Shown: positions 16,310 through 39,865, counted from the stretch's first letter. The stretch: 64,000 bases of DNA from a virus (IMGVR_UViG_3300025387_000012:1-64000), one strand, 5' to 3'. Notes: generated by a model from the sequence alone, not told the origin. Program-made: numbers and translations.

Positions 16310-16343
16310 TCAAATCACGATCCAACCACGGGTAAATAAAACT

Positions 16344-18469: not shown

Positions 18470-19981
18470 TTGCCCCCTGGGATCACAATGAAACTATTCG
18501 ACCTTCACGAAGAAAAGAAAGCCTCCTCAGGGATGGCGCTTTCTAAGATCGTCTCCTACATCAGCCGTAAGATCGGCGTTGAGCTGTTGCGTATCCCTGG
18601 CGTGGAACACTTCCACAACTCCAAGGAGAACGGTTACGGTCTCCGCTATGTCGAAGCAGGTTCAACTCGCTGCATTCGTTTGAACTGGAACTCTGGAAGC
18701 GCAGCTTCTGGCGGTAAGATCAGCGATCTTTCGTCCATCGACGTCTTCTCTGGTAAGAACCACGATCCTACCTACACCATCTCTACGAAGGGTATTTCGA
18801 TCGTTCACGCTCTTCCAATGGTTGTTGCGATGCTGCAGGACCCATCGATTGGTAAGCACTTTGCATTCCCTGTCTCTGCTGAAATGGCTCTGTCAGAAGC
18901 GGTCCTCCTTGAAGTTGCTCGTGATGAGTACACTTCTGAAGGTGCACTCACAGACTTCCTCCATCAGCTGGCAAGCGGCAAGTCCTTTACCCGCTCTGAG
19001 TTCATTCAGCGCTACCACATCGTCCATGTCGGCATCTTCGACACGATCTATGACGACTTTGCTGATCGCTTCATCATTCGTGGTAAGCGTATCTCCCTCG
19101 CAAGCAATCAGAATCTGGACAGCCTGAAGGACAGCATTCTTTCCAAGGCTGGCGTCGTTGAGGTCAGCAAGGGCGGTACCAAGGAGGTCTACTTTAAGTC
19201 TCCTCAGGAAGAAGAACTTGAGAAGGAGGGCGGTGGCCAAAAGGTTCCTTACGCCGACACTCTCGAACACCTTGAAGGTCTGGTACAGGCCCTCATCAAG
19301 GGTTCCTTCAACGCACTGTTCGTTGCAGGTAAGGGTGGTACCGGTAAGACTCAGACCGTTGAGCGCGTGCTTCACTCTGCTGGTCTTACCGATGGTCATG
19401 GCTATTACAAGAACACCGGTTCAGCTTCTGCTGCCGGTGTTTACACCCTGCTCTACCATCACCGCAACGACATCATCCTCTTCGACGACTCCGATGGTGC
19501 ACTCGCCGACCAAGATGCTCGTAACCTGATCAAGGCTGCTACCGACACCAAGAAGTCTCGTAAGCTGGTTTGGAACAAGCGTTCCTCATTCATCTTCGAT
19601 CCAGAGTCTGAGGATCCAGATGCCTACGAAGGCGATCTGTCAATGGCTCCTAAGTACTTCGACTTCAAGGGTCGTATCATCTTCATCTCGAACCTTCCAC
19701 TGAACAAGCTGGACCCAGACGGTGCACTTCGCACCCGCGCGTTCATCATCAACGTCGATCCAACTGATGATGAGATGTTCGACTACATGGGCAAGATTCT
19801 CGACGACATCAAGCTTGAAGATGGTCTGACTCTTTCCAAGGAAGAGAAGGAACACGTCCTCACCGTCGTTAAGACGTCCAAGCGTAAGGGTGACGTATCC
19901 CTTCGTAAGCTCGTTCGCGCTCTCAACCTTGCCGCATCGGGGGCGCCAAACTGGGAAAAACTGGTTGAGTTGTACGCCTGA
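18470..19981 (+). CDS. P-loop NTPase of unknown function (paralog of 23110..24075)
   Basis: Walker A FVAGKGGTGKTQTV, Walker B ILFDDSDG, shared C-terminal block FDFKGRIIFISNLPLNKLDP with paralog; alternative start ATG 18488. Confidence 0.6.
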   Translation: MPPGITMKLFDLHEEKKASSGMALSKIVSYISRKIGVELLRIPGVEHFHNSKENGYGLRYVEAGSTRCIRLNWNSGSAASGGKISDLSSIDVFSGKNHDPTYTISTKGISIVHALPMVVAMLQDPSIGKHFAFPVSAEMALSEAVLLEVARDEYTSEGALTDFLHQLASGKSFTRSEFIQRYHIVHVGIFDTIYDDFADRFIIRGKRISLASNQNLDSLKDSILSKAGVVEVSKGGTKEVYFKSPQEEELEKEGGGQKVPYADTLEHLEGLVQALIKGSFNALFVAGKGGTGKTQTVERVLHSAGLTDGHGYYKNTGSASAAGVYTLLYHHRNDIILFDDSDGALADQDARNLIKAATDTKKSRKLVWNKRSSFIFDPESEDPDAYEGDLSMAPKYFDFKGRIIFISNLPLNKLDPDGALRTRAFIINVDPTDDEMFDYMGKILDDIKLEDGLTLSKEEKEHVLTVVKTSKRKGDVSLRKLVRALNLAASGAPNWEKLVELYA

Positions 19982-20037: not shown

Positions 20038-20847
20038 ATGTCTGAAACAAGAAGAGCATCTCAGAGAAACCACCACATCATTTACAGGACAACGTGTAGT
20101 GTAACTGGTAAGTGGTATATTGGAATGCATAGCACTGACAAACTTGATGACGGTTATCTTGGTTCAGGCATGCATCTTTGGCGATCGATTGACAAGTATG
20201 GAAAAGAACATCACTCTGTTGAAATCCTCGAGCATTATCCAGACAGAAAATCGTTGTCGGAAAGAGAAAGAGAAATTCTTGCTGAGGCTAAGAAACATCC
20301 GATGTGCATGAATATTGCTTGGGGTGGAGAAGGTTACTACGATCGTCCTCCCACCAAGGAAGAAACCCGGGAGAAACTTTCTAAGGCATCTAAGGGTTAT
20401 GTACGAACAAAAGAGTGGTATGAAAAGATTGCTGCTTCAAGAGCAAAGACCTGGACAACACATACTCCAGAAGCACGTGAGAAGATACGTCAAGCGCTTA
20501 CTGGAAAGACGCTAAGTGAAGAACATAAGCGCAAAATTTCAGAAGGCGGCACTGGCCAGAAGAGAACCGACGAAACCCGTGTAAATATCTCAAATGCTTT
20601 AAAGGGCAAGCCAAAGGTTCAACCTGCTTTCTCTGATGAACATCGAGAAGCTATTCGCCAATCTAGAATTGGCAAGAAGCATTCCGAAGAAGCAAAAGCC
20701 AACATGCGAAAGTCTAAAGATATGAGCAAGAATAAGCGACGCTGCACCGTAGATGGGATAAATATCTACGAATCTGTTAATGACCTTGTTTCAGCATTAG
20801 GAAGTGGCAGAAATGGATCAAGGTCTCCACTTTTCCGGTATATCTAA
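20038..20847 (+). CDS. GIY-YIG homing endonuclease with NUMOD3-like C-terminal repeats
   Basis: IYRTTCSVTGKWYIGMHS (GIY-YIG), conserved R/E; repeated SEEHKRKISEGGTG / TRVNISNALKGK / SEEAKANMRKS NUMOD3-like helices; TAGGAGG RBS. Confidence 0.75.
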   Translation: MSETRRASQRNHHIIYRTTCSVTGKWYIGMHSTDKLDDGYLGSGMHLWRSIDKYGKEHHSVEILEHYPDRKSLSEREREILAEAKKHPMCMNIAWGGEGYYDRPPTKEETREKLSKASKGYVRTKEWYEKIAASRAKTWTTHTPEAREKIRQALTGKTLSEEHKRKISEGGTGQKRTDETRVNISNALKGKPKVQPAFSDEHREAIRQSRIGKKHSEEAKANMRKSKDMSKNKRRCTVDGINIYESVNDLVSALGSGRNGSRSPLFRYI

Positions 20848-21790: not shown

Positions 21791-22123
21791 ATGATTACGA
21801 AGCCGACCAAAACCCGTAAGCGTCGTTCAGACCGAAAGCACATCGTGTATGTGCTCACTAACAAGGTCACCGACGAAAAGTACGTGGGCATCACGGTCTG
21901 TGTGGATCGCTCCGGTAAGGAGACCCTCGCAGCTCGTTGGTGCAGGCACGTTGGTCGCGCTAAGAACCAGGACAAGAGCTGGAAGCTCTGTGAGTCCATT
22001 CGCGAGCACGGTCCTGAAGCCTTCGAAAAGGAAATCCTCCAGTTCGTTCGCGGTAAAGCCGAAGCCCACTCTGTCGAGACCGAACTTCGTAAGTCCGGTC
22101 AGTTCACTCTGAACACGGTGTGA
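21791..22123 (+). CDS. small GIY-YIG domain nuclease
   Basis: HIVYVLTNKVTDEKYVGIT...R..H..: GIY-YIG core; 110 aa. Confidence 0.55.
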   Translation: MITKPTKTRKRRSDRKHIVYVLTNKVTDEKYVGITVCVDRSGKETLAARWCRHVGRAKNQDKSWKLCESIREHGPEAFEKEILQFVRGKAEAHSVETELRKSGQFTLNTV

Positions 22124-22620
22124 CGATGACAAGACACGCTCGCTACATCCGACTTCAGAAGATGACCCTCGACGAAGGGTTGGCATACATCTCTCGCCAG
22201 CACTATCGAAAGATCGGTGGCTTCTGGATTGAAAAAGCCTCAAAGCCCTCCAACACGCGGCTGCACATGTTCAAAAGCGGACAAACACGGTGCGTTAGCT
22301 GCGGGTTGGAGGGTTCTCTTTTCCACATTGAGCGTCACAAGAATGACAAGGTGATGCCCTTCTCCATCAACCTCTATGGGGTTAGGGATGGAGAGGAAAT
22401 CATGATGACGTGGGATCACATCCTCCCCAAATCAATGGGAGGATCGAACCACCTTTCCAACGCCCAGTGCATGTGCGAGAAGTGCAACCAGAAAAAGGGC
22501 ACCGACATCAGTCTCGCTGACCTGATCAAGCTTTCCAAAATCCAAAACTTCTTGGAAATCCATAAGGCGCTGCCTATGGAACCCGTCTTTACGTTTGAAG
22601 GAGAATACGATGTCGCTTAA
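22120..22620 (+). CDS. HNH endonuclease
   Basis: WDHILPKSMGGSNHLSNAQCMCEKCNQKKG HNH motif with zinc-binding Cys pairs (CVSCG...CEKCN). Confidence 0.7.
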   Translation: MTMTRHARYIRLQKMTLDEGLAYISRQHYRKIGGFWIEKASKPSNTRLHMFKSGQTRCVSCGLEGSLFHIERHKNDKVMPFSINLYGVRDGEEIMMTWDHILPKSMGGSNHLSNAQCMCEKCNQKKGTDISLADLIKLSKIQNFLEIHKALPMEPVFTFEGEYDVA

Positions 22621-25270: not shown

Positions 25271-25342
25271 GCCTCGGGACTGGTCGTTGGCGAGGATAAA
25301 TACTGAGACCATCCATCTCGTCCAAGTTCGGTGCCAGCCCAC

Positions 25343-26110
25343 ATGACACGAAAAATAGCCGTTTGTCTCAGCGGCCAGCCTCGCACATGGAAGAAGTGCT
25401 ACTCGACGTGGTTCGATGTCATGGACGGCTGGGGTGAGGTGGATTATTTCTGCCATTTGTGGAACTACAATAGCGACAGCAGCCTATCACAGTATGAGCT
25501 GGGTGACACCCCAGACACCTTGATCACGGCTGAAGAGATGCATGATATCCGCGAGACCCTTCATCCCAAGAAGCTTGTGTTCCAACCTAAAAAGAACGAT
25601 GTCATTCTTGGTGAGGGATTGGCAAACCCTGTCGCACCATGGGCGCACAGCCAGTTCTACAGCATGTGGCGAGTGGCAAACCTGAAGCGTCAGTACGAAA
25701 TCGAAAACGATTTTGAATACGACCTGGTTGTTCGACTTCGAACAGACCTGGTGCTACAGCCAAAGTTCATGCCGCCCGTCATGGCTCCTTCAACGCTCTA
25801 CGCAGTCCACACCCAACCGACTGATCCAGTTTATGGGGTCCCTCGGATTGGAGACATCTTCTTCTTGTCAGATAGCCTAACGTTTGATCACATCGCAATG
25901 TTCTACCACAGCCTTCGCTACATTGATGCTGATCACGTACTCCCCGGAAAGCCAGAGCTTTATGCCTTCCCACCAGAGGTTGCGCTCTATTACTATTGCG
26001 TCATGTCAGGCATCGACATTCAGCCGCTAAACGCCCTCGACATTAAGGTCATGAGAAGCCAAGAGCATCTTGCCAGAGTTGGAAAACTGCACCCATATGA
26101 AACCGCTTAA
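25343..26110 (+). CDS. uncharacterised 'AVCLSGQxRTW' family protein, paralog 1 (candidate glycosyl/group transferase)
   Basis: Shares N-terminal KIAVCLSGQPRTW, central YDLVVRLRTDL and DDIxFxSDS blocks with 3 paralogs in window. Confidence 0.55.
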   Translation: MTRKIAVCLSGQPRTWKKCYSTWFDVMDGWGEVDYFCHLWNYNSDSSLSQYELGDTPDTLITAEEMHDIRETLHPKKLVFQPKKNDVILGEGLANPVAPWAHSQFYSMWRVANLKRQYEIENDFEYDLVVRLRTDLVLQPKFMPPVMAPSTLYAVHTQPTDPVYGVPRIGDIFFLSDSLTFDHIAMFYHSLRYIDADHVLPGKPELYAFPPEVALYYYCVMSGIDIQPLNALDIKVMRSQEHLARVGKLHPYETA

Positions 26111-26903
26111 GATCGCAGTCTGCCTCAGCGGCCAGTCCAGAACGTGGAAGGCTGCGGTGAAGGGTACGCTTCAGCACTTTTCATCAGACCACCATCAGTA
26201 CTTTTTCTTTGGGCACACATGGGATGAGAACTGCTGGAAGACCCTGTTCTCTGGCAACCGCGATTACATTTTTGAGAAGCTAGACGCTGTCGCTCTCGAG
26301 AAAGACATTCGCGAATCCATTCCGATGAGTGGGCTGAAGATTGACCCACAGGCCGGCTGGATCGTCAATGGGCAATGGTGCACATGGGCTCCTATGCTGA
26401 AGAGCACCATGCTAGCCAACCACATGAAGACGCAGTACGAGATCGCAAACAACATGATGTTCGATCTTGTCGTGAAGACCCGCTGGGATGCCCTTTACGA
26501 TCCGCGAATGAAGTTCGAAAGCTTCATCCCGCTTCACACTCACCCTAACGCTCTCTACTGCATGGCCTCCGCAGATTTTGCGTACGAGTACCGTTTGCCA
26601 GCCGTCGACGACATCATGTACTTTGGATCTTCTACCGCCATGAACGTCATTGACAGCCTTTACCACTACTACACCACGTGTCAGCTAAATAACTTTGTCG
26701 GCGTAAAGTTTCCTTCTCAGGTTCTAGACAAGACGGTAGGCGTAGGTGTCCTTCTGTATAAGTGGGCCACTCGTAAAAATTTGCTCCTTTCCACCGGCAG
26801 ATTTAGGACACCAGGGGTTATCCGCAAGAACGTTGAGCACATGAACTGGCCAGAAGATTACGAGAAAATGAAGCACGCTTACATCCACTTCGAGGCTGTC
26901 TGA
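26097..26903 (+). CDS. uncharacterised 'AVCLSGQxRTW' family protein, paralog 2
   Basis: MKPLKIAVCLSGQSRTW, FDLVVKTRWDAL, DDIMYFGSS; overlaps upstream paralog by 14 nt. Confidence 0.55.
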   Translation: MKPLKIAVCLSGQSRTWKAAVKGTLQHFSSDHHQYFFFGHTWDENCWKTLFSGNRDYIFEKLDAVALEKDIRESIPMSGLKIDPQAGWIVNGQWCTWAPMLKSTMLANHMKTQYEIANNMMFDLVVKTRWDALYDPRMKFESFIPLHTHPNALYCMASADFAYEYRLPAVDDIMYFGSSTAMNVIDSLYHYYTTCQLNNFVGVKFPSQVLDKTVGVGVLLYKWATRKNLLLSTGRFRTPGVIRKNVEHMNWPEDYEKMKHAYIHFEAV

Positions 26904-27802
26904 TGACGCACACGATTTTTGCAAATGGCGACAGCTGGACTTTCGGCAGTGAAATCGCAGCCCCCGAGTTCCTTGCTCCTGATGGTAAGGGTGTTGGCAT
27001 GGGCAATCGCTTTACCCATGAGGGTGCCGACTACCTGCCGCATAATGACTTTTACCGCATCCCAAGGGTCTGGCCGTCTCGCCTAGGTGATATGCTCGGT
27101 GACGCAGAGGTGATCAACAAGGCTTGGCCTGCTAGAAGCAATGATACTATCTACCGCTCCACAATGGAGTGGCTGCTGACGAACTACATCACGCCCGGCA
27201 AGGATGTGTCTGACCTGACGGTAATCATTGGATGGAGCAGCCTTGAGAGAAAGAACGTCATCTTCGAGGACTTCGAAGGAAAGCTGTTCGAGTACACCAT
27301 TTGGCCAGCCATGAACCAAACCCACTACTACGATCTGCCGATGGTCAAGAAGTATTTCCAGATGCACGTCACCCATCTTTGGACTCAGCGTGAGTGTCTG
27401 ACCCGCTTCGTAGAACAGAACTTGTCACTGCACCTTCTGTGCAAGGCACATGGAATCAAGCATCACTTCTTCAACTCCTTCTATGTTCCTCGTGGTGAAG
27501 GCGGCAACTTCCATAAGTGGAAGGACCTTGACATCGCAACAGCGATCAAGCAGCTTTACGATCACAGGACAAACGGTTGGCTGGAACCGAACTACAACGA
27601 TCTTAAGGAGGTAGGCCGCCTTCTTCAAATGTGGGAATCTATTCCTGAAGAAGTGTTCCTCAACAAGAGCACTGGACTAACCTTCAAGACGCATGTTGAG
27701 CAAAACCTGCCGCACGAGCTTAGGTGGTGCGGCATTCACCCAAGTCCAGAGGGTCATGAGGTCTGGGCAAAACACCTTCACAAGCATCTGTTCAATGGGT
27801 AA
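26903..27802 (+). CDS. SGNH/GDSL-like hydrolase/acyltransferase-fold protein, paralog 1
   Basis: N-terminal FANGDSWTFG (GDS block I) and C-terminal HPSPEGHEVWA (DxxH-like block V). Confidence 0.5.
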   Translation: MTHTIFANGDSWTFGSEIAAPEFLAPDGKGVGMGNRFTHEGADYLPHNDFYRIPRVWPSRLGDMLGDAEVINKAWPARSNDTIYRSTMEWLLTNYITPGKDVSDLTVIIGWSSLERKNVIFEDFEGKLFEYTIWPAMNQTHYYDLPMVKKYFQMHVTHLWTQRECLTRFVEQNLSLHLLCKAHGIKHHFFNSFYVPRGEGGNFHKWKDLDIATAIKQLYDHRTNGWLEPNYNDLKEVGRLLQMWESIPEEVFLNKSTGLTFKTHVEQNLPHELRWCGIHPSPEGHEVWAKHLHKHLFNG

Positions 27803-28577
27803 GCTGGTAATCTGTGGCGACAGCTTTAACGCTGGCATTGGATGTCGTGACCTCTTCACACAGCCATACGGGATTCTTCTTGCGCAGAAGCTGGGATATG
27901 ATCCTATCATTCTAGCTCGTGGTAGCGCTAGCAACTTCGCTGTCTATCTTCAGGCGAAGTGGGCAGCTGAACATATCGTCAGCGAAGGCGATGTCGTTGT
28001 CATCAGCGTGACGAGCTACGACCGCATTGAGTGGATCGCTGAAGGGAAGAGCAATGCTCACCCAGCAACTCTAGGCGCCAACAACATTAACTATCACCAG
28101 TACCCTCCGCACCACGGGTACTACGACACGCGCCACTATCCTTTCTACTTTGAAGGCCGTGAAGAGTATGACCCTAAGCTGCTCACAGAGCAGATTCCAG
28201 CGTTCGATGACTACCTTGGCATCCACAAGAAGAAGCACCAAGGCAGCATCCAGTACTACAAGCGCCTACATTCAGAACCAGTTCCTAAGATCGAACTGAT
28301 GCTCGACTACTGCATGAACGTGATGGACTACGACATCAAAAGGCAATACGACATTGGTTTGATCTTCATGGCTTACACCATGCTGAAGAGAAAGGGCATT
28401 CGCTGCATCGTGCTCTCACATGATGAGATGGTCAAAGCAATGGTCGGTGAAGACACGGTCAGCATCAACTGGGGCGAGTACACCCTCAAGTACCCTGACA
28501 CGATTGGCAGTGGTCATGCTTCTGAGGAAGCACATGTTGAAATCGCGGACATTCTCTATGAGCATCTTCAGCCATGA
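27795..28577 (+). CDS. SGNH/GDSL-like protein, paralog 2
   Basis: LVICGDSFNAGIGC block I; clear paralog of 28574 gene (ILARGSASNFAVYLQA vs NLGRGGASNYAIYLQA). Confidence 0.55.
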   Translation: MGKLVICGDSFNAGIGCRDLFTQPYGILLAQKLGYDPIILARGSASNFAVYLQAKWAAEHIVSEGDVVVISVTSYDRIEWIAEGKSNAHPATLGANNINYHQYPPHHGYYDTRHYPFYFEGREEYDPKLLTEQIPAFDDYLGIHKKKHQGSIQYYKRLHSEPVPKIELMLDYCMNVMDYDIKRQYDIGLIFMAYTMLKRKGIRCIVLSHDEMVKAMVGEDTVSINWGEYTLKYPDTIGSGHASEEAHVEIADILYEHLQP

Positions 28578-29350
28578 AGATGGGATTCTGTGGTGACAGC
28601 TTTACCGCCGGCATTGGGTGCATGAATCTCTATGAGCAACCATATCCGATTCTTACGAGCAAGCACTTCAATGCTAAGCTGACCAATCTTGGCAGAGGTG
28701 GCGCAAGCAACTACGCCATCTATCTTCAGGCCATTCATGCTATTGAGGAGGTCAAGGTTGACATTCTGGTCATTAGCATGACAAGCATGGATCGCTTTGA
28801 CTGGATCGCTGAAGGTCATGACGCGGAATACATCACCGCCAGAAACATTAACTATCATGACTACGCACCATTCAACTTCCCTCAGCCAAACCATGACAAG
28901 CCACTCGTTCACCCATTTGCAAAAGACCCAGAGTATGATCCTCTTCTTCTGTCTCAGAACGTATCGACGATAGTTGAAGCGATCAAGAAGCCAGACATAG
29001 CAGCGCTTGCGCTCAAGAAGGAACCAAAGGCCAAGCTAAAGAAGATTCTTGACTTTTATGCTGATGTTCTTCCATGGCACGTCAAGATCAGCTATGACGT
29101 CGGGCTGATGGCAGCTGCCTACACCAGAGCAAAGAAGGCTGGGATCAACTGCATCGTCATTGGCTTTGAAAAGGAACTCCTCGCCACCATTCCACCCGAG
29201 GATTTGATTAACCATAACTGGTTTGCCTTCAGCCACCAGTATCCTGATTCAATCAAGAGCATGCACGCGAGTGAAGATGGGCATCAAGCCTTCTCTGAGA
29301 CCCTTATCAAAAGGATAGAGCAAAATGGCTATCACAACTCTGTACGCTAA
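28574..29350 (+). CDS. SGNH/GDSL-like protein, paralog 3
   Basis: GFCGDSFTAGIGC block I; C-terminal ASEDGHQAF (DxxH block V). Confidence 0.55.
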   Translation: MKMGFCGDSFTAGIGCMNLYEQPYPILTSKHFNAKLTNLGRGGASNYAIYLQAIHAIEEVKVDILVISMTSMDRFDWIAEGHDAEYITARNINYHDYAPFNFPQPNHDKPLVHPFAKDPEYDPLLLSQNVSTIVEAIKKPDIAALALKKEPKAKLKKILDFYADVLPWHVKISYDVGLMAAAYTRAKKAGINCIVIGFEKELLATIPPEDLINHNWFAFSHQYPDSIKSMHASEDGHQAFSETLIKRIEQNGYHNSVR

Positions 29351-30146
29351 TGGCTGCTCTTGGACTGCGGGAGATGGAGTAGAGCAGGATCCTTTCTTCG
29401 TTGAAATGTTCCCCAACATGACTCCCGTTCAAAAGCGAAATGCTCTAGGCCTTGACATCGCCAACTACGCGTGGCCTCGTTACCTTGCTGAACGACTTAA
29501 CATTCCTAACGTAGTGAATGATGCGATCGGCGGTGGCAGTAACGCTCGCGCATTCCGAATGACCCTTGAATATGTTGCTAAGCTTACTGAAGAGCAAAGA
29601 GCTGAAACTCTAGTCATCATCGGCTGGACAACGATTGAGCGCGGTGAAATCTACCTTCACGGTGAAACGAGTGTTGAAGGTCAAGGTGGCCCAGGCTGGT
29701 ATCGCTTCAACGCTGGTCAACCATTCACTGCCTACTACAACTGCTTCAGCAAATCCAAGCTCCAAAACCTCAATAAATACCATGAGCTATATGTCACTGA
29801 GGTATATGACGACGCTGCTGCGATCGAGATGAACTTTCTTCAGGTGTTCAGCCTGAAGAACACTCTTGAAAATCTTGGCGTCAAGTATCTGTTTTTCTCT
29901 GCTCTGAATGGTGGTCTATCAGGACCTCACCCATCAGCAGAAGTAAAACAGAAAGACTTGATGTTCACGCCACTTCTTCGCTGCAACAACATCATCGATC
30001 TGAAGTATTCGTACAATAGGTTTGTAGTAGAAAAACGGCTACCACTGTCTTCATGCATTCATCCACTCATTGAGACCAACAAAGTGTGGGCTGAGTATTT
30101 GGATAATGAGCTGAATGCTCGCAACATCTTAGGAGATCCTTCATGA
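29325..30146 (+). CDS. SGNH-like protein, paralog 4 (divergent: Cys replaces Asp in block I)
   Basis: LYANGCSWTAGDG aligns with ANGDSWTFG of paralog 1. Confidence 0.45.
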   Translation: MAITTLYANGCSWTAGDGVEQDPFFVEMFPNMTPVQKRNALGLDIANYAWPRYLAERLNIPNVVNDAIGGGSNARAFRMTLEYVAKLTEEQRAETLVIIGWTTIERGEIYLHGETSVEGQGGPGWYRFNAGQPFTAYYNCFSKSKLQNLNKYHELYVTEVYDDAAAIEMNFLQVFSLKNTLENLGVKYLFFSALNGGLSGPHPSAEVKQKDLMFTPLLRCNNIIDLKYSYNRFVVEKRLPLSSCIHPLIETNKVWAEYLDNELNARNILGDPS

Positions 30147-30247
30147 TCGACTTCTTTAAGAACATCATCTACCAAATCAAGAGCAAGATTAAGTACCACC
30201 AAAAGATGAAAGAAATCCGCAAGAGGGACCCGTATATCTACAAATGA
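30143..30247 (+). CDS. micro-ORF (34 aa, Lys-rich) translationally coupled on both sides
   Basis: ATGA overlaps with both neighbouring genes fill the 97-nt gap exactly. Confidence 0.25.
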   Translation: MIDFFKNIIYQIKSKIKYHQKMKEIRKRDPYIYK

Positions 30248-30939
30248 TTAAGGTCATCAGCAAATCTTCATCTGATCAAATCTACGCCAACACTTCCTAT
30301 ATCTTCTACAGAAGCTCTGTTGAAAACGGAAGTCTAATCTTTGGTGGTAACTTTGACAGGCTCGTGTACGTCGTGGATGGTGCTTTTACCGTTCAGGGCC
30401 ACGCACTTGAGCCCGGCGATACGGTGCAAATCAAGGGTCGCGTAACGTCTGTTGATGGCACTGGCACGCTCTACGTAGCGCAAGCCGCCATCCCGCATGA
30501 AGACATTCAGCAAATCGTCAAGATCACCAGGGCAGGTGCTCACTACAAGGTAGTGAAGCCGTGGGGCCATGAGCTATGGCTCAACGGCGAAGGTGCTCCA
30601 TTCTGCGCGAAGAAGATCTTCATCAAGGCCGGAAATCAGACAAGCCTGCAGTACCACAACTTCAAGGAAGAGACCAACCTTGTAGAAGATGGTCAGGTTG
30701 TTCTTGTCACGCAAGCAGACATGTCTGTCGCCATCGATGATGTGCAATCGCAGCATCTCCAAGAAACCACATTCGCTGGTCCAGTCTGCTTTCACGTTAT
30801 ACCTCGCACCATTCACAGACTGCGAGCCATTACTGACCTTAACCTTTTCGAAGTCTCTACACCGCATCTCGATGATGTCATTAGACTTCAAGATGATGCT
30901 AATCGTTCACACGGACGTATAGATAGCGAGCACCAATGA
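30244..30939 (+). CDS. cupin-fold sugar(-phosphate) isomerase-like protein
   Basis: KPWGHELWL motif typical of type II phosphomannose-isomerase/cupin sugar isomerases; conserved His/Gln (SLQYHNFKEE). Confidence 0.55.
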   Translation: MIKVISKSSSDQIYANTSYIFYRSSVENGSLIFGGNFDRLVYVVDGAFTVQGHALEPGDTVQIKGRVTSVDGTGTLYVAQAAIPHEDIQQIVKITRAGAHYKVVKPWGHELWLNGEGAPFCAKKIFIKAGNQTSLQYHNFKEETNLVEDGQVVLVTQADMSVAIDDVQSQHLQETTFAGPVCFHVIPRTIHRLRAITDLNLFEVSTPHLDDVIRLQDDANRSHGRIDSEHQ

Positions 30940-32444
30940 AGACCGTCGTACTCCTCACCGCTGGCACTGGAACTCGGATGGGGAAGTATTCGAGCGTCAT
31001 CAACAAGACGTTGCTTCCTATCAAAGACAAGGCGATCATCTCTCACATTATTTCTCAGTTTGATGCTGACACCGAGTTCGTAGTTGCGCTTGGTTACAAG
31101 GGCGACATGGTCAGAACCTACCTTGAGCTTGCCCATGAGACATCCAAGTTTACCTTCGTTGAGGTAGAAGACTTCGATGGTCCCGGTGCAGGTCCAGCGC
31201 AATCCCTCATTCAGTGCCGCGACAAGCTCAACGGTCCATTCTACATCATCGCGTGTGACGCCCATTACGAAGGGCTAAACAACATTGATGAGAGCACCAA
31301 CGTTGTTTGCGTTGCGCCAGTAAGCATCGAGCTTTCGCCGGCCTACTGCAATGTTGAGCTAGATGGATCAAGAATATCCAAGATCGTTGACAAGCAGTAC
31401 TGCACGAGTGGACTGGCTGTCAGTGGTGCGTTCTTCATCAAGGACACCGAACCTTTCTGGAACGCTTTGACTGGATCTGAGCTCTCGACCGGATGGTCTG
31501 TCCTTGAGACCCACGCCGTCGAACTGCCATGGCACGACCTTGGCACCTTCGACAAGTACCAAGCCTTCTACCTTGAGAACTCTCCCTATGACTTTAGCAA
31601 GACCGATGAGTTCCTCTACATCATCAATGGTAGAGTGATCAAGTGGTTCAGGGACAAGACGATCACTGACAACCGCGTCCTCCGTATTCAGGGTCGTGAG
31701 CACCTCTTCCCAACGATTGACTTCCAAAAGGACGGCTTCTACTCCTACAAGTTTGTGCCAGGTGAAGTACTCTATCAGTGCGTTACTCCTCAAATCTTTG
31801 AAGACTTCCTGAAATGGATGTCGTTTGAAGTATGGCCAGTTCGTCGAAGCACAAGCGTCAGACTTACTAACGCAATGTGCCGTGACTTCTACTATACGAA
31901 GACCATGAAGCGCTTGGATATGTTCCGTGACAAGTATCCAGACTTCAACCCCAAAGTCATTAACAATCAGGTGATGAAGGTTGACATGGACAATGGGTTG
32001 AAGCTCATTAACTGGAAAGCAGTCTGTGAAGAAGAGATGTACCAACGCTCTGCCTTTATTCACGGTGACTTGCAGTTTGACAATGTCATCTACGATGGTA
32101 GCAAGTTTACCATCCTTGACTGGCGCCAAGACTTTGCGGGCAATCTTCAGGTTGGCGATCTCTACTACGATGCTGCAAAGCTGCTTGGTGGCATGATCCT
32201 TAACTACGACCTCATCCGTCAAAACCAGTTCAGATTTACTGAAGACGGCGACAGCTGCACCTTCGCATACACCGCGCGTCATGAGTATCAGCCCCTTCGC
32301 GAAAGACTTCAGCACCTGCTGCCAAGTCCTATCATCGACGATCTTATCACGATCATCTTCCTCAACATGGCCCCGCTGCACTCAGCTCCCTTTGACAAGC
32401 TGCTCTACTGCCTGGCATTGGAGCGTCTCAATGGACTTGCTTGA
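30936..32444 (+). CDS. bifunctional sugar-phosphate nucleotidyltransferase / APH-ChoK-type kinase
   Basis: N-term VVLLTAGTGTRMG (sugar-1-P NTP-transferase G-loop); C-term HGDLQFDNVIYDGSKFTILDWRQDFAG (Brenner motif HGDxxxxN + DxxF of aminoglycoside/choline kinase fold). Confidence 0.65.
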   Translation: MKTVVLLTAGTGTRMGKYSSVINKTLLPIKDKAIISHIISQFDADTEFVVALGYKGDMVRTYLELAHETSKFTFVEVEDFDGPGAGPAQSLIQCRDKLNGPFYIIACDAHYEGLNNIDESTNVVCVAPVSIELSPAYCNVELDGSRISKIVDKQYCTSGLAVSGAFFIKDTEPFWNALTGSELSTGWSVLETHAVELPWHDLGTFDKYQAFYLENSPYDFSKTDEFLYIINGRVIKWFRDKTITDNRVLRIQGREHLFPTIDFQKDGFYSYKFVPGEVLYQCVTPQIFEDFLKWMSFEVWPVRRSTSVRLTNAMCRDFYYTKTMKRLDMFRDKYPDFNPKVINNQVMKVDMDNGLKLINWKAVCEEEMYQRSAFIHGDLQFDNVIYDGSKFTILDWRQDFAGNLQVGDLYYDAAKLLGGMILNYDLIRQNQFRFTEDGDSCTFAYTARHEYQPLRERLQHLLPSPIIDDLITIIFLNMAPLHSAPFDKLLYCLALERLNGLA

Positions 32445-33237
32445 TGTAGTTAAAACGGCAGGTGACGAGATCATCTGCGCGTCCCTCAGCCAGAAGCCAG
32501 GAAAGTTTGGAGCGACCATCCACAACGCCGGCTTCAAGCACCTTGGCCTAAACTATCGCTATGTCGGCTGCGCCGAAACCAATATCGAGCGCGGACTTCA
32601 GATCGCCAGAGAGCATGGCGTTCGCGGAGTAGGCATCTCAATGCCATTCAAGGTCGCCGCCCTCAACCTTATGGACGAGGTTCATGATACAGCGCTGTTC
32701 GCTGGAGCAGTAAATACAGTCGTAAATGATAACGGTTGGCTGACGGGATACAATACTGACGTTGCTGGCTTTAGCGCTCTTGCAGAGGAAGCAAACCTCC
32801 AGCGAGACGATCGCATCTGCATCCATGGATCAGGTGGGGTAGCTAGAGCCGTTCTTGTTGCGCTCAAGGATTACTCGGACGTGTCTATCTACGCCAGAAA
32901 CCAGCGTGAAGCTGCTGTTCTTGGCGACAAGTATGGCCGTCCTGTCTACCACTTTACCCATCCTAAGCGTGAACACGGTGCGGTCATTAACTGCACTCCA
33001 GTCGGTATGAATGATGAAGTTATCAGTTTCATTGACCTTGACGCCATGACAAAGTTCATCGACGTAATCGTGAAAGAAACGCCAAACGTTAGAGCGGTAA
33101 GAGCAGCTGGAAAGCCAGCCTTTACCGGCGAGACTATGGCTCTTCATCAAGCGTTTGCCCAGTTTGAGCTCTACACAGGTGTTAAGGCCCCAACCGAAGA
33201 AATGGTAAGAGCCCTAAATGCTGCATCCCAAACTTAG
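32431..33237 (+). CDS. shikimate/quinate dehydrogenase (AroE)-like NAD(P)-dependent oxidoreductase
   Basis: SLSQKPGKFGATIHNAGFKHLGLNYRY, GISMPFKVAAL, GAVNTVVNDNGWLTGYNTDVAGF - canonical AroE substrate-domain motifs; Rossmann GSGGVARA. Confidence 0.6.
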   Translation: MDLLDVVKTAGDEIICASLSQKPGKFGATIHNAGFKHLGLNYRYVGCAETNIERGLQIAREHGVRGVGISMPFKVAALNLMDEVHDTALFAGAVNTVVNDNGWLTGYNTDVAGFSALAEEANLQRDDRICIHGSGGVARAVLVALKDYSDVSIYARNQREAAVLGDKYGRPVYHFTHPKREHGAVINCTPVGMNDEVISFIDLDAMTKFIDVIVKETPNVRAVRAAGKPAFTGETMALHQAFAQFELYTGVKAPTEEMVRALNAASQT

Positions 33238-33703
33238 GCACTTCGTTGTTGACGTCGATGGCGTCATGACTACCGGACAGTTCATCTACACAGCTGACGG
33301 AAAGGTAGGTAAAGTGTTTGGGCCACATGACAGCGACGGCCTAAAGCTTATCAAGCATCTCATCAACATCCAGTTCATAACTGCAGACCAACGTGGCTTT
33401 GACATCTCAAAGAAACGCATCGTTGATGATATGGGTTATCCGTTGACCCTTGTCACTGAAGCAGAGCGCGAGAGCTACATTGAGCAGCTCGGGTTTGACT
33501 TCACGGCGTTTATGGGAGATGGCTACTACGACGCACCTGTCCTTCAGAAGTGCGCTATTGGCATCGCTCCAGCCAGTGCGCGCTATGAAGCAAAACGCGC
33601 CGCACGTTTCATAACGAGTTCACGGGCAGCTGAAGGCGCCTTGATGGACGCGTGCATCTATCTCAAGGGTATCCTGACACATGAGTACGACAAAGAAGAT
33701 TGA
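33218..33703 (+). CDS. KdsC-like HAD phosphatase (sugar-phosphate phosphatase)
   Basis: FVVDVDGVMTTGQFIY (DxDGVxTDG), ITADQRGFDISKKRIVDDMG, FMGDGYYDAPVLQKC (GDxxxD) as in Kdo-8-P phosphatase family. Confidence 0.65.
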   Translation: MLHPKLRHFVVDVDGVMTTGQFIYTADGKVGKVFGPHDSDGLKLIKHLINIQFITADQRGFDISKKRIVDDMGYPLTLVTEAERESYIEQLGFDFTAFMGDGYYDAPVLQKCAIGIAPASARYEAKRAARFITSSRAAEGALMDACIYLKGILTHEYDKED

Positions 33704-34697
33704 ACTTGAAGTTGGCATCGGGCCTATGAGCCTTGAAGTCATCGACGCGGTAGTGAAGTACGCGAACAAGAGAGATCGTGACCTCATGCTTATCGCCTCG
33801 CGTAACCAAATCGAGTGCGAGACGCTCGGCAGCGGTTATGTTGGTGGCCTGCACTCGAAGACCTTTGTTGACTATGTTCGCGGTAGAGACATGGATCGTC
33901 GCGTAAAGATTTGCCGCGACCACTGTGGTCCATACCTTCACGCTGCTGAGAAAGGCATGTCATATGAAGAGGCCATGGAGCGCGTCATCGAAAGTCTGAA
34001 GACCGACATGACCTGTGGCTTCGATCTTATCCACGTCGACACCTCGCTTGCTCCAGACCCTTACAAAGCGGCTGAGCTTATGTTCTCGACCCTTGAAAGG
34101 TCTAAGCGCGATCTCGAGTATGAGTTCGGCACCGAGGACAACGTGGGCACAGCTGTCTCCGCAAAGAAGTTTGAGCACGACATTCTGTTCGTAAAGCAGT
34201 TCGTCAACCCTCGCTTCGTCGTTGGTCAGACCGGCTCGCTCGTTAAGAGCATCCATCAGGTTGGTACCTTCGCTCCTGACACCGTCAAGCAGCTGGTTGA
34301 AATCGCCAACAAGCATAGCGTGAAGCTCAAGGAGCACAACGCAGATTACATCTCGCACGCTGAAGTCAATGAGCGCAAGAAGCTTGGTGTTGGTGCTATC
34401 AACGTAGCACCAGAGTTTGGTGTTGCTCAGACGCAGGTCCTGATCGAGCTTGCCAACCGTTGGAGACTTGAAGATGAGCTGAACAAGTTCATGAAGGTCG
34501 TCGTCAAGGGTGGCAAGTGGAAGAAGTGGAAGCACGGCACCGACTGGGATGACAAGCTGAAGTTCCTTTCCGCAGGTCACTACCACTTCACATCTCCCGA
34601 GTACATCCGCCTGGTTGACATGATCAACCAAAAGGAAAAGTTCGGTGCGGCAGTCGAGAAGAAGATCTTCAAGCTGATCGACAACTATGCAAAATGA
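33681..34697 (+). CDS. GatZ/KbaZ-like (tagatose-bisphosphate aldolase/kinase family) protein
   Basis: Collinear motifs with GatZ: GIGPMSLEVIDAV, LMLIASRNQIECETLGSGYVGGL, ICRDHCGPY, LIHVDTSL. Confidence 0.55.
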   Translation: MSTTKKIELEVGIGPMSLEVIDAVVKYANKRDRDLMLIASRNQIECETLGSGYVGGLHSKTFVDYVRGRDMDRRVKICRDHCGPYLHAAEKGMSYEEAMERVIESLKTDMTCGFDLIHVDTSLAPDPYKAAELMFSTLERSKRDLEYEFGTEDNVGTAVSAKKFEHDILFVKQFVNPRFVVGQTGSLVKSIHQVGTFAPDTVKQLVEIANKHSVKLKEHNADYISHAEVNERKKLGVGAINVAPEFGVAQTQVLIELANRWRLEDELNKFMKVVVKGGKWKKWKHGTDWDDKLKFLSAGHYHFTSPEYIRLVDMINQKEKFGAAVEKKIFKLIDNYAK

Positions 34698-35464
34698 AGG
34701 TTGCGGTCTGCATAAGCGGTCAGCTTAGGACTGGCCTTCGGTGTCTAGAAAATCAAGCTCACTTCTTGAGAGGGCTTGATGCAGACTTCTTCCTACATAC
34801 GTGGTCTACCAACACCAACAAGCGCTTTCCTCGCGATCATGAAGAGACACCTGTACCTCGTCAGGTCATAAAGGACTATGTCTCTGCTCTGAAGCCAAAG
34901 CGCTGGACGTTTGAAGATCAGCACCTCAACTTTAGAGGTGGCAAGGACATCGCGCCAGTAGCCCTTCACTATTCTTGGATGAAGAGCGTTCAGCTCAAGC
35001 AAGAGCATGAGCGTCACACAGGTGTCAGCTACGACGCAGTCATCAAGATCCGTCCTGACCTTCTTCTCAGGCCAGAAAGAAATCCAGCGTCAAGCATTCT
35101 CGAGAAGGTTTATGGTAAGCGCAAGCTCATCATTGAAAACATTCCTGAGTGGTGGAAGGTTATGGATTGGCATGATGATGTCATGTGGTTTGGTGACAAT
35201 GAGACCATGAACATGGCGACTGAATACTTTCAGCAGACCTATGTCGAGCGCACCAATGCTGAAGCATTTGGCTTCTTCGCAGACAAGAGAGGTGTTGATG
35301 TTGATGGCACCTATGAGTTCTCTTATGCCGTCTATCGAAAAGAATGCGAGCACTTTGACCCAATGACTCAATATGAAGAGTGCTTCGAGTGCGAGACACA
35401 CTACACCAGTACAGCGTGCACAACCTTGGCAACACCTGAAGAATCTCCGGACTACTACTCATGA
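34694..35464 (+). CDS. uncharacterised 'AVCLSGQxRTW' family protein, paralog 3
   Basis: MKVAVCISGQLRTG, YDAVIKIRPDLL, DDVMWFGDNETM. Confidence 0.55.
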   Translation: MKVAVCISGQLRTGLRCLENQAHFLRGLDADFFLHTWSTNTNKRFPRDHEETPVPRQVIKDYVSALKPKRWTFEDQHLNFRGGKDIAPVALHYSWMKSVQLKQEHERHTGVSYDAVIKIRPDLLLRPERNPASSILEKVYGKRKLIIENIPEWWKVMDWHDDVMWFGDNETMNMATEYFQQTYVERTNAEAFGFFADKRGVDVDGTYEFSYAVYRKECEHFDPMTQYEECFECETHYTSTACTTLATPEESPDYYS

Positions 35465-36294
35465 GGATTGCTCTTTGCTACAGCGGCCAGATCCGCACAG
35501 GTCGAAAGTGCATTGAAAACCAGATCAGGTTTCTCGGTGAGCACGCGAAGGCTGACACCTTCCTCCACACGTGGACCCACAACTCCAATCGAAAGTTCCC
35601 AGGCATCCGCGGAATAACCAGGGTACCACAGGAGCAGATTGACAGCTACGTTCAAGAGCTGAACCCAATCGCTTCTTTGGTTGAGGATCCAATCGAGCGT
35701 GGTATCTACGCAGCTCACGCTGCTTACTGGCCGCCTGCTCAGTCTCTCTTCTATTCGTGGCGTGAAAGCATCCGCATCATGCACGAGTATGAAGAGCAGA
35801 TGGGAATCAAGTACGACGTTGTCGTCAAGCTGCGCCCCGACATTATCTTCTCAGATCGTTGGAGACTAGAAGACGACCTTGAAGCTGCCGCGAGTGGAAA
35901 GTTTCTCATTCCCAAGTTGACGCACAATCCAACTTGGATGGATGATGAAAGAATCTACGATGACTTCTTTGTAACTACTGGCGACAACATGCGCAAGGCT
36001 CTTGGCTTCTACACGGAAGCTTTTGAGGACAAGACAACAGGTCACATTAACTTCGGCAGATGGCTGCACGATAATGGCATGTCTCCTGAGATGCCGTCAC
36101 GCTCCGAGTTCATGATCTACCGAAAGGAAGCCCAGGACCTTAACCCAATGGTGGACTACGACAAGATCGCTGTAGGCCTTACGCGACTGCGAGCCACAGG
36201 CCCATTCTTCTACAACGATCCCAACGCTAGGGTTAACCCTGATGCCGCGGTCATTATCATCCAGCCTGGTGAAAGCGCCGACTATTACAAATAG
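35461..36294 (+). CDS. uncharacterised 'AVCLSGQxRTW' family protein, paralog 4
   Basis: MRIALCYSGQIRTG, YDVVVKLRPDII, DDFFVTTGDNMR. Confidence 0.55.
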   Translation: MRIALCYSGQIRTGRKCIENQIRFLGEHAKADTFLHTWTHNSNRKFPGIRGITRVPQEQIDSYVQELNPIASLVEDPIERGIYAAHAAYWPPAQSLFYSWRESIRIMHEYEEQMGIKYDVVVKLRPDIIFSDRWRLEDDLEAAASGKFLIPKLTHNPTWMDDERIYDDFFVTTGDNMRKALGFYTEAFEDKTTGHINFGRWLHDNGMSPEMPSRSEFMIYRKEAQDLNPMVDYDKIAVGLTRLRATGPFFYNDPNARVNPDAAVIIIQPGESADYYK

Positions 36295-36308
36295 GCTGTT
36301 TACAATCT

Positions 36309-36339
36309 CATCAAAGCGATATACGATATCCGAATGACA
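36309..36339 (+). promoter_or_regulatory. promoter, conserved family (TTTACA...TATACGAT)
   Basis: GGCTGTTTACAATC. Confidence 0.5.
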
Positions 36340-36879
36340 AAGAAACACTTTACGAGTGACCTGCATTTTGGTCACGAGAACATCATCAAGTACTGCAAGC
36401 GTCCATGGAAAAACGCAAGTGACATGGACGAGGCCCTCATCGCCAACTGGAACAACGTGGTTGCGGATGATGACGAGGTCTACATTCTGGGCGACCTATT
36501 CTTCTGTAACGAGAAGAAGGCGTCTGAACATCTGTCGCGGCTCAAGGGAAAGAAGTTCTTTCTTCCTGGCAACCACGACAAGATGCTGCGCAAGTCGAAG
36601 GTCATGCTCGACAAGTTCGACAAGATTCTTCCAGACCTGCACGAGGAGTCCATCGACGGCATTCACGTCGTCATGTGCCACTATCCGCTCCTCACATGGA
36701 ACAGAGCCTTTCGCGGTTCGTTCATGCTTCACGGGCACAGCCACAACAGCATTCCCTTCGACAAGAAGCTGCGGCGTCTCGACGTTGGTGTCGACGCGCA
36801 GTACTACGTCCCAATCGAGTGGGATGAGATTAAGCGTAAGCTGGAAAAGGTAGACCCGACGGACGTCAGGGACTACTAA
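36334..36879 (+). CDS. calcineurin-like metallophosphoesterase
   Basis: FTSDLHFGHEN (motif I DxH), ILGDLF (GDxx), LPGNHD (GNH[DE]); downstream of conserved promoter 36309. Confidence 0.65.
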   Translation: MTKKHFTSDLHFGHENIIKYCKRPWKNASDMDEALIANWNNVVADDDEVYILGDLFFCNEKKASEHLSRLKGKKFFLPGNHDKMLRKSKVMLDKFDKILPDLHEESIDGIHVVMCHYPLLTWNRAFRGSFMLHGHSHNSIPFDKKLRRLDVGVDAQYYVPIEWDEIKRKLEKVDPTDVRDY

Positions 36880-39832: not shown

Positions 39833-39865
39833 AGCTCGACCTCCTAAAGCTTATTGGAGTTATTT

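Follow-up and report, generated by a model that had tools for sequence, protein, structure and literature searches.

The window, the whole 64,000-nucleotide stretch analysed here, comes from an uncultured jumbo phage and carries four consecutive plus-strand ORFs (A, B, C and D; 26903-30146). Predicted structure and sequence conservation support assigning all four products to the SGNH fold, with the nucleophilic serine and the block V histidine kept. The array lies inside an 11.5-kb operon of overlapping genes (25331-36879) that also encodes four DUF7796-like paralogs (U1-U4) and a sugar-activation cassette (cupin, nucleotidyltransferase-kinase, AroE-like, HAD and GatZ-like proteins). This sugar-tailoring module is undescribed and is common to dozens of uncultured phages. 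Our leading reading, to which we give not quite even weight, is that A-D are cytoplasmic acyl-transfer enzymes that tailor the operon's activated sugar or glycan, whose likeliest end would be on 5-hydroxymethylcytosine of the phage DNA. The operon is composed as follows:

25331-26110, plus strand: U1, DUF7796-like, probable ATG start at 25343 (phrog_13607, E = 1e-19; U-family profile)
26070-26903, plus strand: U2, DUF7796-like paralog, probable ATG start at 26097
26903-27802, plus strand: A, SGNH-fold member of the DUF6071 'A-type' lineage, 299 aa (NGDSWTFGSEI; above the PF19547 gathering score at E = 2.5e-14; 56.7% identity to its L001 ortholog), with Ser11, Asn80, Arg116 and His279-Pro280 conserved across 20 unique orthologs of the lineage
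27795-28577, plus strand: B, 260-aa SGNH-fold protein of an unnamed 'B/C-type' family (CGDSFNAGIGC)
28574-29350, plus strand: C, 258-aa SGNH-fold protein, the second B/C-type copy (CGDSFTAGIGC)
29325-30146, plus strand: D, SGNH-fold member of the DUF6071 'D-type' lineage, 273 aa (NGCSWTAGDG; PF19547 E = 2.8e-17), with Gly10-Cys11-Ser12, Asn65, Ser72-Asn73, Arg106 and His246 conserved
30143-30247, plus strand: small ORF (34 aa, basic) between D and the cupin, with an ATGA overlap on each side, called in five independent assemblies
30244-30939, plus strand: cupin like the C-terminal domain of type II mannose-6-phosphate isomerase (PF01050 E = 1.3e-5; TIGR01479 region 351-465)
30936-32444, plus strand: bifunctional protein, N-terminal sugar-phosphate nucleotidyltransferase and C-terminal APH/choline-kinase-like kinase (PF12804 and PF01636)
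32431-33237, plus strand: shikimate dehydrogenase (AroE)-like oxidoreductase (PF08501/PF18317; NF009202 E = 1e-56, under the equivalog cut-off)
33218-33703, plus strand: KdsC-like HAD phosphatase (TIGR01670 E = 2.5e-12; PF08282)
33681-34697, plus strand: GatZ/KbaZ-like, class II aldolase-like TIM-barrel protein (PF08013 E = 9e-9; TIGR02810)
34694-35464, plus strand: U3, DUF7796-like (tblastn cross-matches with U1/U2 homologs; U HMM)
35461-36294, plus strand: U4, DUF7796-like paralog (U HMM)
36334-36879, plus strand: small calcineurin-like metallophosphoesterase at the module end (PF00149 E = 3e-6)

Every junction from U1 through U4 overlaps, including those of the array (U2/A by 1 nt, TGATG; A/B by 8 nt; B/C by ATGA; C/D by 26 nt; D and the next gene by ATGA), and terminator-like sites are fewer in the operon than in shuffled sequence. 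Gene calling in five public assemblies independently reproduces the 299-, 260-, 258- and 273-aa products, and the B start at 27795 agrees with independent calls and with homolog starts. ORFs and gene calls thus bear out the four consecutive, overlapping genes of the first-pass annotation, and the N-terminal motifs that it listed (ANGDSWTFG, CGDSFNAGIG, CGDSFTAGIG and ANGCSWTAGDG) are all present. U1 and U2 (25331-26903; 29% identity, E = 3e-18) and the genes at 34694-36294 make up another family of four paralogs within this operon. A sulfotransferase-like or fucosyltransferase-like assignment of the DUF7796-like proteins (SGxxRTW and RxD motifs) found no support in Pfam, PDB or NCBIfam and was dropped; a literature search on DUF7796 returned nothing relevant. 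The metallophosphoesterase keeps its module-end position in the related loci L001, L012 and L014/15.

Sequence comparison divides the array into two pairs. B and C share 37.7% identity (BLASTP E = 3e-52) and A and D share 24.6% (E = 2.7e-12), both far above chance and in keeping with the strong and weaker similarities noted at first pass. BLASTP finds no significant similarity between A/D and B/C; the two families are linked at the profile level only (hhalign 96.5%, E = 7e-10), and probably form one superfamily. A and D exceed the 27-bit gathering threshold of DUF6071 (PF19547), with 54.0 and 63.6 bits, whereas B and C give no PF19547 match at E up to 1. D, with 72 homologs, carries the DUF6071 signature NGCSWTAG...GGGSN...GWT..DR.E...HP...GH..WA. 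The cysteine in its GCS triplet had been taken for a replacement in one odd copy; in fact GCS is no degeneration but the norm, conserved in at least 90% of DUF6071 and at least 95% of the D-type lineage, and the GDS of A marks a separate conserved DUF6071 lineage. The A-type, D-type and B/C-type proteins are ancient lineages, typically present once each per module and found in many viral contigs with gene order shuffled, and the B/C duplication is the sole lineage-specific one. The two duplication events proposed earlier are therefore too simple a history.

Structure prediction places these proteins in the SGNH superfamily, as first suggested, and the fold is accompanied by the expected serine and histidine. 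The fold is the three-layer alpha/beta/alpha arrangement of the superfamily, with a five-stranded parallel sheet; the AF2 model of D has pLDDT 93.9 and pTM 0.92, and its top Foldseek match is TesA (E = 4e-6, TM 0.7). In topological position, the serine after strand 1 matches block I, the GGxSN loop after strand 2 block II, and the histidine before the last helix block V; this serine and histidine show at least 95% conservation in all lineages. The block I serine is Ser11 in A, the serine of CGDSF in B, Ser9 in C and Ser12 in D, where it follows GC rather than GD. The aspartate of GDS is not among the four residues that name SGNH. GGGSN (D) and RGGASN (C) lie at the right topological position for block II, where the oxyanion-hole glycine would be found; this region reads PARSN in A. 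Against a TesA sequence, hhalign gives short local matches only (the block II region of DUF6071, block I of B/C), one of which aligns TesA G44 with D G70, a weak hint of register. The block III GxND motif is absent. After strand 3, D reads G-W-T-T-x-E-R and C reads S-M-T-S-x-D-R, so that by motif register a threonine appears to occupy the position of the oxyanion-hole asparagine, followed by an invariant [DE]R; the invariant asparagine of the block II loop (N73 in D, N46 in C) might substitute. The block V histidine is invariant (H279 in A, H231 in C, H246 in D). Of the 'DxxH-like' block described earlier, the histidine is found in all four proteins and the aspartate at His-3 in none of them, nor in any lineage; B/C-type proteins have an invariant aspartate at His-6. 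Invariant positions of the B/C-type alignment are C6, G7, D8, S9, R41, G42, S45, N46, T70, S71, D73, R74, D225, H231 and H237.

Relative to the SGNH/GDSL superfamily (E. coli TesA/TAP; CE2/CE3; the GDSL esterases 4rsh and 1vjg), A-D differ in several respects. They contain an insertion of ∼80–90 residues, a hairpin plus two long helices, and replace GxND with G-W-T or T-S and then [DE]R. Pfam GDSL models stay under threshold: Lipase_GDSL_2 (PF13472; threshold 32.9 bits) gives C 21.3 bits (E = 4e-4) and does not match A, B or D. Sequence and profile searches of A-D against the PDB return no meaningful match. Relative to DUF6071, itself an uncharacterised family, A is a distinct GDS sub-lineage and B and C are related through profiles alone. 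The missing His-3 aspartate and the apparent threonine for the block III asparagine mean that the chemistry may differ from that of classic esterases. SGNH enzymes with only a Ser-His dyad exist.

A-D contain no signal peptide or transmembrane segment, and the serine falls at residues 9–12. PatB and OatA, by contrast, act outside the cytoplasm, and both OatA and CASD1, another extracytoplasmic SGNH-fold O-acyltransferase, are fused to a membrane acyl-donor domain. Compared with PatB, the OatA C-terminal domain, SsfX3 and CASD1, A-D are leaderless and stand-alone, with no donor protein encoded nearby: we found no acyl-donor gene (ACP, acyl-CoA ligase, AT3/MBOAT) in the operon, and no ACP or acyl-donor gene in the whole window. 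The relative L012 has an ACP-like ORF outside its module, with no counterpart in this window.

The cassette resembles NDP-sugar clusters for DNA glycosylation, such as the Afh system of HY126, RB69 gp51-55 and DLP3 gp81-83 (PMC13326640). The 30936-32444 protein, which also matches NCBIfam sugar-1-P nucleotidylyltransferase models, has a domain architecture identical to AfhE and DLP3 gp82, and the cassette as a whole has the same architecture as the NDP-sugar route of AfhE/AfhF type that phages with glycosylated DNA use (PMC13326640). Shared components are the bifunctional nucleotidyltransferase/kinase, a small HAD phosphatase, a sugar-phosphate isomerase and, elsewhere in the genome, a thymidylate-synthase (TS) homolog and DNA glycosyltransferase(s). 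There is no sequence similarity to the Afh-type clusters at tblastn E 1e-5. The isomerase is a cupin here and a SIS domain there, the AroE-like and GatZ-like proteins are extra here, and the TS homolog here is a hydroxymethylase-type protein rather than a 5hoC synthase. The text of PMC13326640 makes no mention of SGNH, GDSL or esterase proteins for Afh-type clusters.

Two genes upstream of the operon connect the window to DNA modification:

5905-6675, plus strand: gp42-like dCMP hydroxymethylase (PF00303 E = 4e-13)
10721-11842, plus strand: T4 beta-glucosyltransferase (BGT)-like DNA glycosyltransferase (PF09198 E = 3.3e-15; 56.6 bits against a cut-off of 27)

The first product aligns with T4 gp42 (motif RSNDAIFGFRND) and retains aspartate at the ThyA D169 position, as in a hydroxymethylase-type TS homolog and not a 5hoC synthase. 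The genome therefore combines a DNA glycosyltransferase with a TS-homolog base-modifying enzyme, a combination that is one mark of T4/Afh-type clusters, and the window also encodes a dNMP-kinase-like gene and MazG. With sugar-nucleotide genes in the operon itself, the sugar-modification setting suggested at first pass is upheld. The two genes lie 15–20 kb from the module. A co-occurrence comparison of two phage lineages, with +/-10 kb flanks, found one shared IMG/VR contig; the related contig IMGVR_UViG_3300012943_000030 carries hydroxymethylase and module together. Since the window encodes both the gp42-like hydroxymethylase and the BGT homolog, tailoring of a DNA-linked sugar by the module is plausible but unproven. 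We dropped low pI as an argument against DNA binding since the phage's own BGT-like DNA glycosyltransferase has an equally low pI.

We propose that A-D are the tailoring part of the operon. On the model of the phage Afh/heptose-type route, isomerase/epimerase/reductase, kinase, HAD phosphatase and nucleotidyltransferase steps encoded by the cassette would lead from a sugar phosphate to an NDP-activated sugar (or cyclitol). A-D, soluble and cytoplasmic, would then use a covalent acyl-serine intermediate, with the block V histidine as general base and no canonical aspartate, and their most likely task would be to attach O-acyl groups, probably acetyl, to different hydroxyls of the activated sugar or its glycan, or to take them off; 5-hydroxymethylcytosine in phage DNA would be the likeliest final destination. 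The analysis establishes the fold, the conserved serine and histidine, the structure of the operon and the recurrence of the module, whereas acyl chemistry, substrate, direction (esterase or transferase) and DNA as the target are inferred. The three ancient lineages (A-type GDS DUF6071, D-type GCS DUF6071 and the B/C-type, duplicated here) may be functionally distinct. A bolder extension, which we consider rather unlikely, is that SGNH-fold and DUF7796-like proteins form a new tailoring class for DNA hypermodification, equipping 5-hydroxymethylcytosine with a sugar or carbocyclic pseudo-sugar that is O-acylated at several positions. Every conserved SGNH lineage would then address a different hydroxyl, and the cassette, exchangeable among related phages (AroE/GatZ or AroB/SDR type), would diversify the modification against host nucleases.

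Phage DNA hypermodification is an active research area because it defeats restriction and other nuclease defences and yields new enzymology. To our knowledge, and within the literature searched, described pathways use glycosyl-, amino-acid-, polyamine- and phospho-transfer, and none has an SGNH-type acyl-transfer step; a literature search on SGNH proteins with DNA hypermodification returned nothing relevant. The locus defines a widespread module of hmC-type jumbo phages, for which we found no describing paper; it combines an interchangeable sugar-activation cassette with SGNH proteins of three conserved lineages and a DUF7796-like family of several paralogs. Should DNA prove to be the target, ester-decorated or cyclitol-type adducts would join the known chemistry. 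If it is not, the locus would still give the first biological context for DUF6071, the DUF7796-like proteins and an unmodelled SGNH family (∼550 cluster representatives).

The layout of two to five U genes, two to four SGNH genes and a cupin-nucleotidyltransferase/kinase-SDH-(HAD)-GatZ series recurs in 24 of 41 related IMG/VR loci, as well as in L001-L006. A four-copy array had been called unusual in a phage. Tandem sets of two to five are usual in this module, and the description holds for cultured phages, from which the proteins are almost absent: a near-identity DNA search found no match, protein-level searches found only Ralstonia phage RsoM2USA for D and nothing for A, and the nucleotidyltransferase-kinase protein matched only a marine SAG virus and, in part, Enterococcus phage sequences. 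Cluster-member look-ups gave no informative names, and we found no paper naming DUF6071. RsoM2USA has three DUF6071 genes, flanked by DNA ligase, DHFR and helicase genes; its paper is silent on DNA modification.

In some other contigs the module adjoins tail-fibre-like genes, so the target may not be DNA. The same chemistry could instead act on a virion protein or tail fibre, or on a host envelope polysaccharide made during infection, an alternative that we regard as unlikely. Phage fibre and spike SGNH domains (G7C gp63.1, 4qnl; SFP21A Gp09, 9lna) are parts of large virion proteins, whereas A-D are small, free-standing, leaderless, cytoplasmic single-domain proteins of a biosynthetic operon, with no fibre or spike domain. 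Moreover, the neighbours in the window and in RsoM2USA are early replication and nucleotide-metabolism genes rather than structural genes, and the operon has no membrane or export component. It is quite improbable that the product is a soluble small molecule (an acylated NDP-sugar or cyclitol-type compound for anti-defence or signalling), with the SGNH proteins tailoring a free intermediate that is never attached to a macromolecule. Nucleotide activation usually comes before transfer to an acceptor, a step for which the four to five DUF7796-like paralogs are candidates, and the same genome encodes a DNA glycosyltransferase homolog.

Decidedly improbable, too, is an SGNH fold with other chemistry, either on carbamoyl or phosphoester groups or through a cysteine nucleophile in the GCS lineages. 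The absent His-3 aspartate, the apparent block III threonine, the invariant [DE]R and the cysteine conserved beside the serine in two lineages would fit such an activity. So would genomic linkage: the tightest DUF6071 associations across viral contigs are with a radical SAM enzyme and a NodU/CmcH-type carbamoyltransferase, which are the only companions of the RsoM2USA genes. Neither of these is encoded in this window, however, every SGNH relative in the fold matches that has been characterised by experiment is an acyl esterase or transferase, and Ser-His-dyad members are known. Loss of activity in one or more copies, as pseudo-enzymes or decaying duplicates, is very improbable: D has asparagine at the H252 column, a second histidine in ∼90% of DUF6071 members, and C has evolved faster than B (48% against 58.7% identity to the respective L001 ortholog), but all four keep the serine, SN loop, arginine and catalytic histidine, have L001 orthologs at conserved positions, and retain intact reading frames in five assemblies.

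The four consecutive SGNH-fold genes of the window, A–D, are one half of a larger operon, and the phage module that this operon exemplifies is widespread and undescribed; the fold is known, and the chemistry is likely of an already known type. The four genes are:

26903–27802 (+), A, 299 aa
27795–28577 (+), B, 260 aa
28574–29350 (+), C, 258 aa
29325–30146 (+), D, 273 aa

The four plus-strand ORFs, their N-terminal motifs and their translational coupling had been reported in the first-pass annotation, and all agree with our analysis: ORF coordinates coincide exactly, and the junctions of the region all overlap (1 nt, 8 nt, ATGA, and 26 nt). The mechanical ORF of B runs from 27693; homologs and independent gene calls begin at MGKLVICGDS. 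BLASTP reproduces the reported strong B–C similarity (37.7% identity, E 3e-52) and the weaker one between A and D (24.6%, E 2.7e-12), and detects no significant similarity between the A/D and B/C pairs. However, alignments of the A/D and B/C families match in a profile–profile comparison (probability 96.5%, E 7e-10, 214 columns), and both show the same collinear motif order: G[CD]S[WF]xAGxG, GG[GA]SN, T[ST]x[DE]R, and H[PA]xxxGH. All four proteins are therefore homologs, though only remote ones.

A–D are members of the SGNH superfamily at the fold level. In the secondary-structure strings, the Ser (Ser12 in D, Ser9 in C) opens the helix that follows strand 1, the GGxSN loop comes after strand 2, and the His (His246 in D, His231 in C) falls immediately before the last helix; topologically, these places correspond to blocks I, II and V. 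Compared with the textbook pattern, block I and the His of block V are present, block III is not recognizable by motif (its Asn position is Thr by motif register, followed by an invariant [DE]R), and there is an insertion of about 80–90 residues. TesA and T4 gp42 served as reference sequences for motif register only. C-terminal DxxH-like blocks had been described as partly retained; the His is indeed kept in A–D, but the Asp at His-3 is absent in every lineage. Within each lineage, conservation is at least 95% for the Ser, the loop Asn, the Arg that follows strand 3, and the His. The four window proteins retain all of these, and inactive copies among A–D are disfavoured because these key residues are conserved. 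None of the four has a signal peptide or transmembrane segment, and they are therefore cytoplasmic.

Pfam assigns A and D to DUF6071, with scores of 54 and 64 bits (cut-off 27); C shows no more than a below-threshold Lipase_GDSL_2 match, and B lacks even that; none of the four has a match in PHROGs or NCBIfam. A search of 5.8 billion proteins returned 72 DUF6071 relatives of D, whereas C had just eight relatives. When a profile was run against all 1.84 billion cluster representatives, B/C-type matches numbered 546 at E up to 1e-3, of which 124 reached E up to 1e-10. These matches show the B/C family to be real, of modest size and without a Pfam model, and B and C belong to an unmodelled sister family of DUF6071. 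The Cys of D had been read as a replacement of the block-I Asp in one copy. This reading does not hold: NGCSWTAG is at least 90% conserved in an alignment of 50 DUF6071 sequences, and the Cys in GCS is the norm for that family.

A census of 41 IMG/VR loci and other fetched loci distinguished the A-type (NGDSWT[FY]G[SC]EI, 33 ORFs) and D-type (NGCSWTAGNG, 50 ORFs) lineages of DUF6071, the B/C-type lineage (CGDSFNxGIG, 31 ORFs), and a short fourth lineage (YGCSFSEPFG, seven ORFs). Proteins of the fourth lineage (L005 8798–9469 and six other loci) are SGNH-like, 206–223 aa long, end in a C-terminal HFNPAGH and have no Pfam match; in some modules their gene separates the DUF6071 genes from the B/C-type one. 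A typical module contains one A-type, one D-type, and one B/C-type gene, in an order shuffled among contigs. Two B/C-type genes occur only in the window and in L001, a close relative, and in a neighbour-joining tree (no bootstrap) B and C each group with one L001 copy. Of the two duplication events proposed earlier, the B/C duplication alone is therefore lineage-specific; the A-type, D-type, and B/C-type splits are old and functionally maintained.

The rest of the operon comprises four DUF7796-like paralogs (U1–U4) flanking the SGNH genes and a five-gene sugar cassette, a short ORF ahead of that cassette, and a phosphoesterase gene after the downstream pair:

25331–26903, U1 and U2, weakly DUF7796-like paralogs matching phrog_13607
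30143–30247, conserved 34-aa ORF, lysine/arginine-rich (MIDFFKNIIYQIKSKIKYHQKMKEIRKRDPYIYK)
30244–30939, PMI-like cupin
30936–32444, nucleotidyltransferase/APH-kinase fusion, 502 aa
32431–33237, AroE-like dehydrogenase
33218–33703, KdsC-like HAD phosphatase
33681–34697, GatZ/class II aldolase-like protein
34694–35464, U3, same family as U1 and U2
35461–36294, U4, same family
36334–36879, small metallophosphoesterase

Genes overlap at every junction from U1 to U4, and terminator-like sites are rarer in the operon than in shuffled sequence. The 34-aa ORF has ATGA overlaps with both neighbours and is called in five independent assemblies. All 109 U-family homologs found are annotated as ‘hypothetical’, and the family has no sequence match in the PDB. 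Its conserved residues are S14, G15, R18, H42, W44, R137, D139, D175, and R242.

Related contigs were read to ±10 kb around the module loci. Two to five U genes, two to four SGNH genes, and cupin-NTPkin-SDH-(HAD)-GatZ make up a layout seen again in 24 of the 41 IMG/VR loci and in the related viral loci L001–L006. Among the genes upstream or downstream of the module in L002–L006 and most IMG/VR loci are those for a radical SAM enzyme of 465 aa (35 loci) and for a carbamoyltransferase of the NodU/CmcH type (31 loci); neither is in the window. Two ORF families that look GT-A glycosyltransferase-like by eye and have no Pfam match, tail-fibre-like proteins with a Peptidase_G2 IMC domain, and a roughly 1650-aa protein without a Pfam match also accompany the module in these loci, and none of them is found in the window.

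One relative, L012 (IMGVR_UViG_3300012943_000030), is syntenic with the window, with flanking genes in common on either side. It retains U-U-A-B/C-D...U-phosphoesterase, and the five-gene cassette (30244–34697 in the window) is swapped in situ at 10747–14215 for a nucleotidyltransferase, an APH-like kinase, an AroB-like sugar-phosphate cyclase (TIGR01357, E 7e-62), and an SDR. A 71.8-kb ENA contig carries an L012-type cassette variant with five SGNH-like genes. From these variants it follows that the tailoring set is constant and the precursor cassette exchangeable. Each alternative cassette includes a shikimate-pathway enzyme homolog, AroE in the window and AroB in L012. About 3.5 kb downstream of the L012 module, an ORF at 18680–19207 has an acyl-carrier-protein-like N-terminus (DLGTDSLDTVEL); it has no counterpart in the window.

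We found no cultured carrier of the full module. DUF6071 was found in one cultured phage only, the Ralstonia jumbo phage RsoM2USA (MG752970.1, about 123.4–129.1 kb). Here a radical SAM gene (gp202) lies among three DUF6071 genes with an NGCSM motif (gp203, gp201, and gp200), and a carbamoyltransferase gene (gp199) comes next. This cluster, all annotated hypothetical, lies between DNA ligase, DHFR, and helicase genes.

In phage clusters that feed DNA glycosyltransferases, an isomerase occurs together with a HAD phosphatase (AfhF) and a bifunctional nucleotidyltransferase/kinase (AfhE) (PMC13326640). The window cassette is alike in architecture, although sequence similarity is undetectable. The most economical reading is that the cassette would supply an NDP-activated sugar or pseudo-sugar, and that the DUF7796-like and SGNH proteins would then tailor it or a derived glycan. 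The SGNH step would be acyl transfer via an acyl-Ser intermediate; its direction (esterase or transferase), acyl donor, and target are what we infer. A literature search found no paper naming DUF6071 or DUF7796 and no description of SGNH enzymes within a DNA-hypermodification pathway.

DNA is favoured as the target because of the genomic context in RsoM2USA and in the window, which derives from a jumbo phage. A 285-kb metagenomic contig carries a gene 100% identical to D, and the window topoisomerase II shares 58% identity with its counterparts in Xanthomonas phages BUDD and X1. The upstream DNA-modification genes of the window include a gp42-like thymidylate-synthase (TS) homolog, a dNMP-kinase-like gene, MazG, and a T4 beta-glucosyltransferase (BGT) homolog, listed here with their neighbours:

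5905–6675, gp42-like TS homolog, aligning closely with T4 gp42, motif RSNDAIFGFRND
9386–11842, three adjacent genes: dNMP/thymidylate-kinase-like P-loop protein, nucleoside 2-deoxyribosyltransferase-like protein, and BGT homolog (PF09198, E 3e-15)
12967–16769, just downstream of the DNA glycosyltransferase gene: CofD/YvcK-like 636-aa protein, MobA/CofC-like nucleotidyltransferase, guanylate-kinase-like protein, and MazG-like pyrophosphatase

The gp42-like homolog retains Asp at ThyA positions 169 and 177. Under the D169N rule for telling TS-homolog types apart (PMC13326640), this active-site signature points to a dCMP hydroxymethylase and not to a 5-hydroxycytosine synthase. An IMG/VR relative on a 368-kb contig (L050/L058) has the same TS and BGT genes, separated by a few kb. 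Counter to a DNA target, the module adjoins tail-fibre-like genes in other contigs, and a non-DNA glycan is the rival target. The test for co-occurrence of the module with hydroxymethylase genes covered two phage lineages. Alternatively, the module product may be a soluble metabolite, or the SGNH-fold proteins may perform non-acyl chemistry.

That CofC-like and CofD-like proteins are paired suggests that a phospho-linked group is transferred from an NDP-activated donor, possibly as another step in DNA or sugar modification. A 1402-aa ORF at 509–4717 (−) has no Pfam match. Homing-endonuclease-like genes (NUMOD3, HNH, HNH/NUMOD3, and GIY-YIG) also occur in the window:

20038–20847, homing-endonuclease-like gene
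22120–22620, homing-endonuclease-like gene
39140–39832 (−), homing-endonuclease-like gene
48188–48814 (−), homing-endonuclease-like gene

One of them is found immediately upstream of the gene for the topoisomerase II large subunit (39854–41818).
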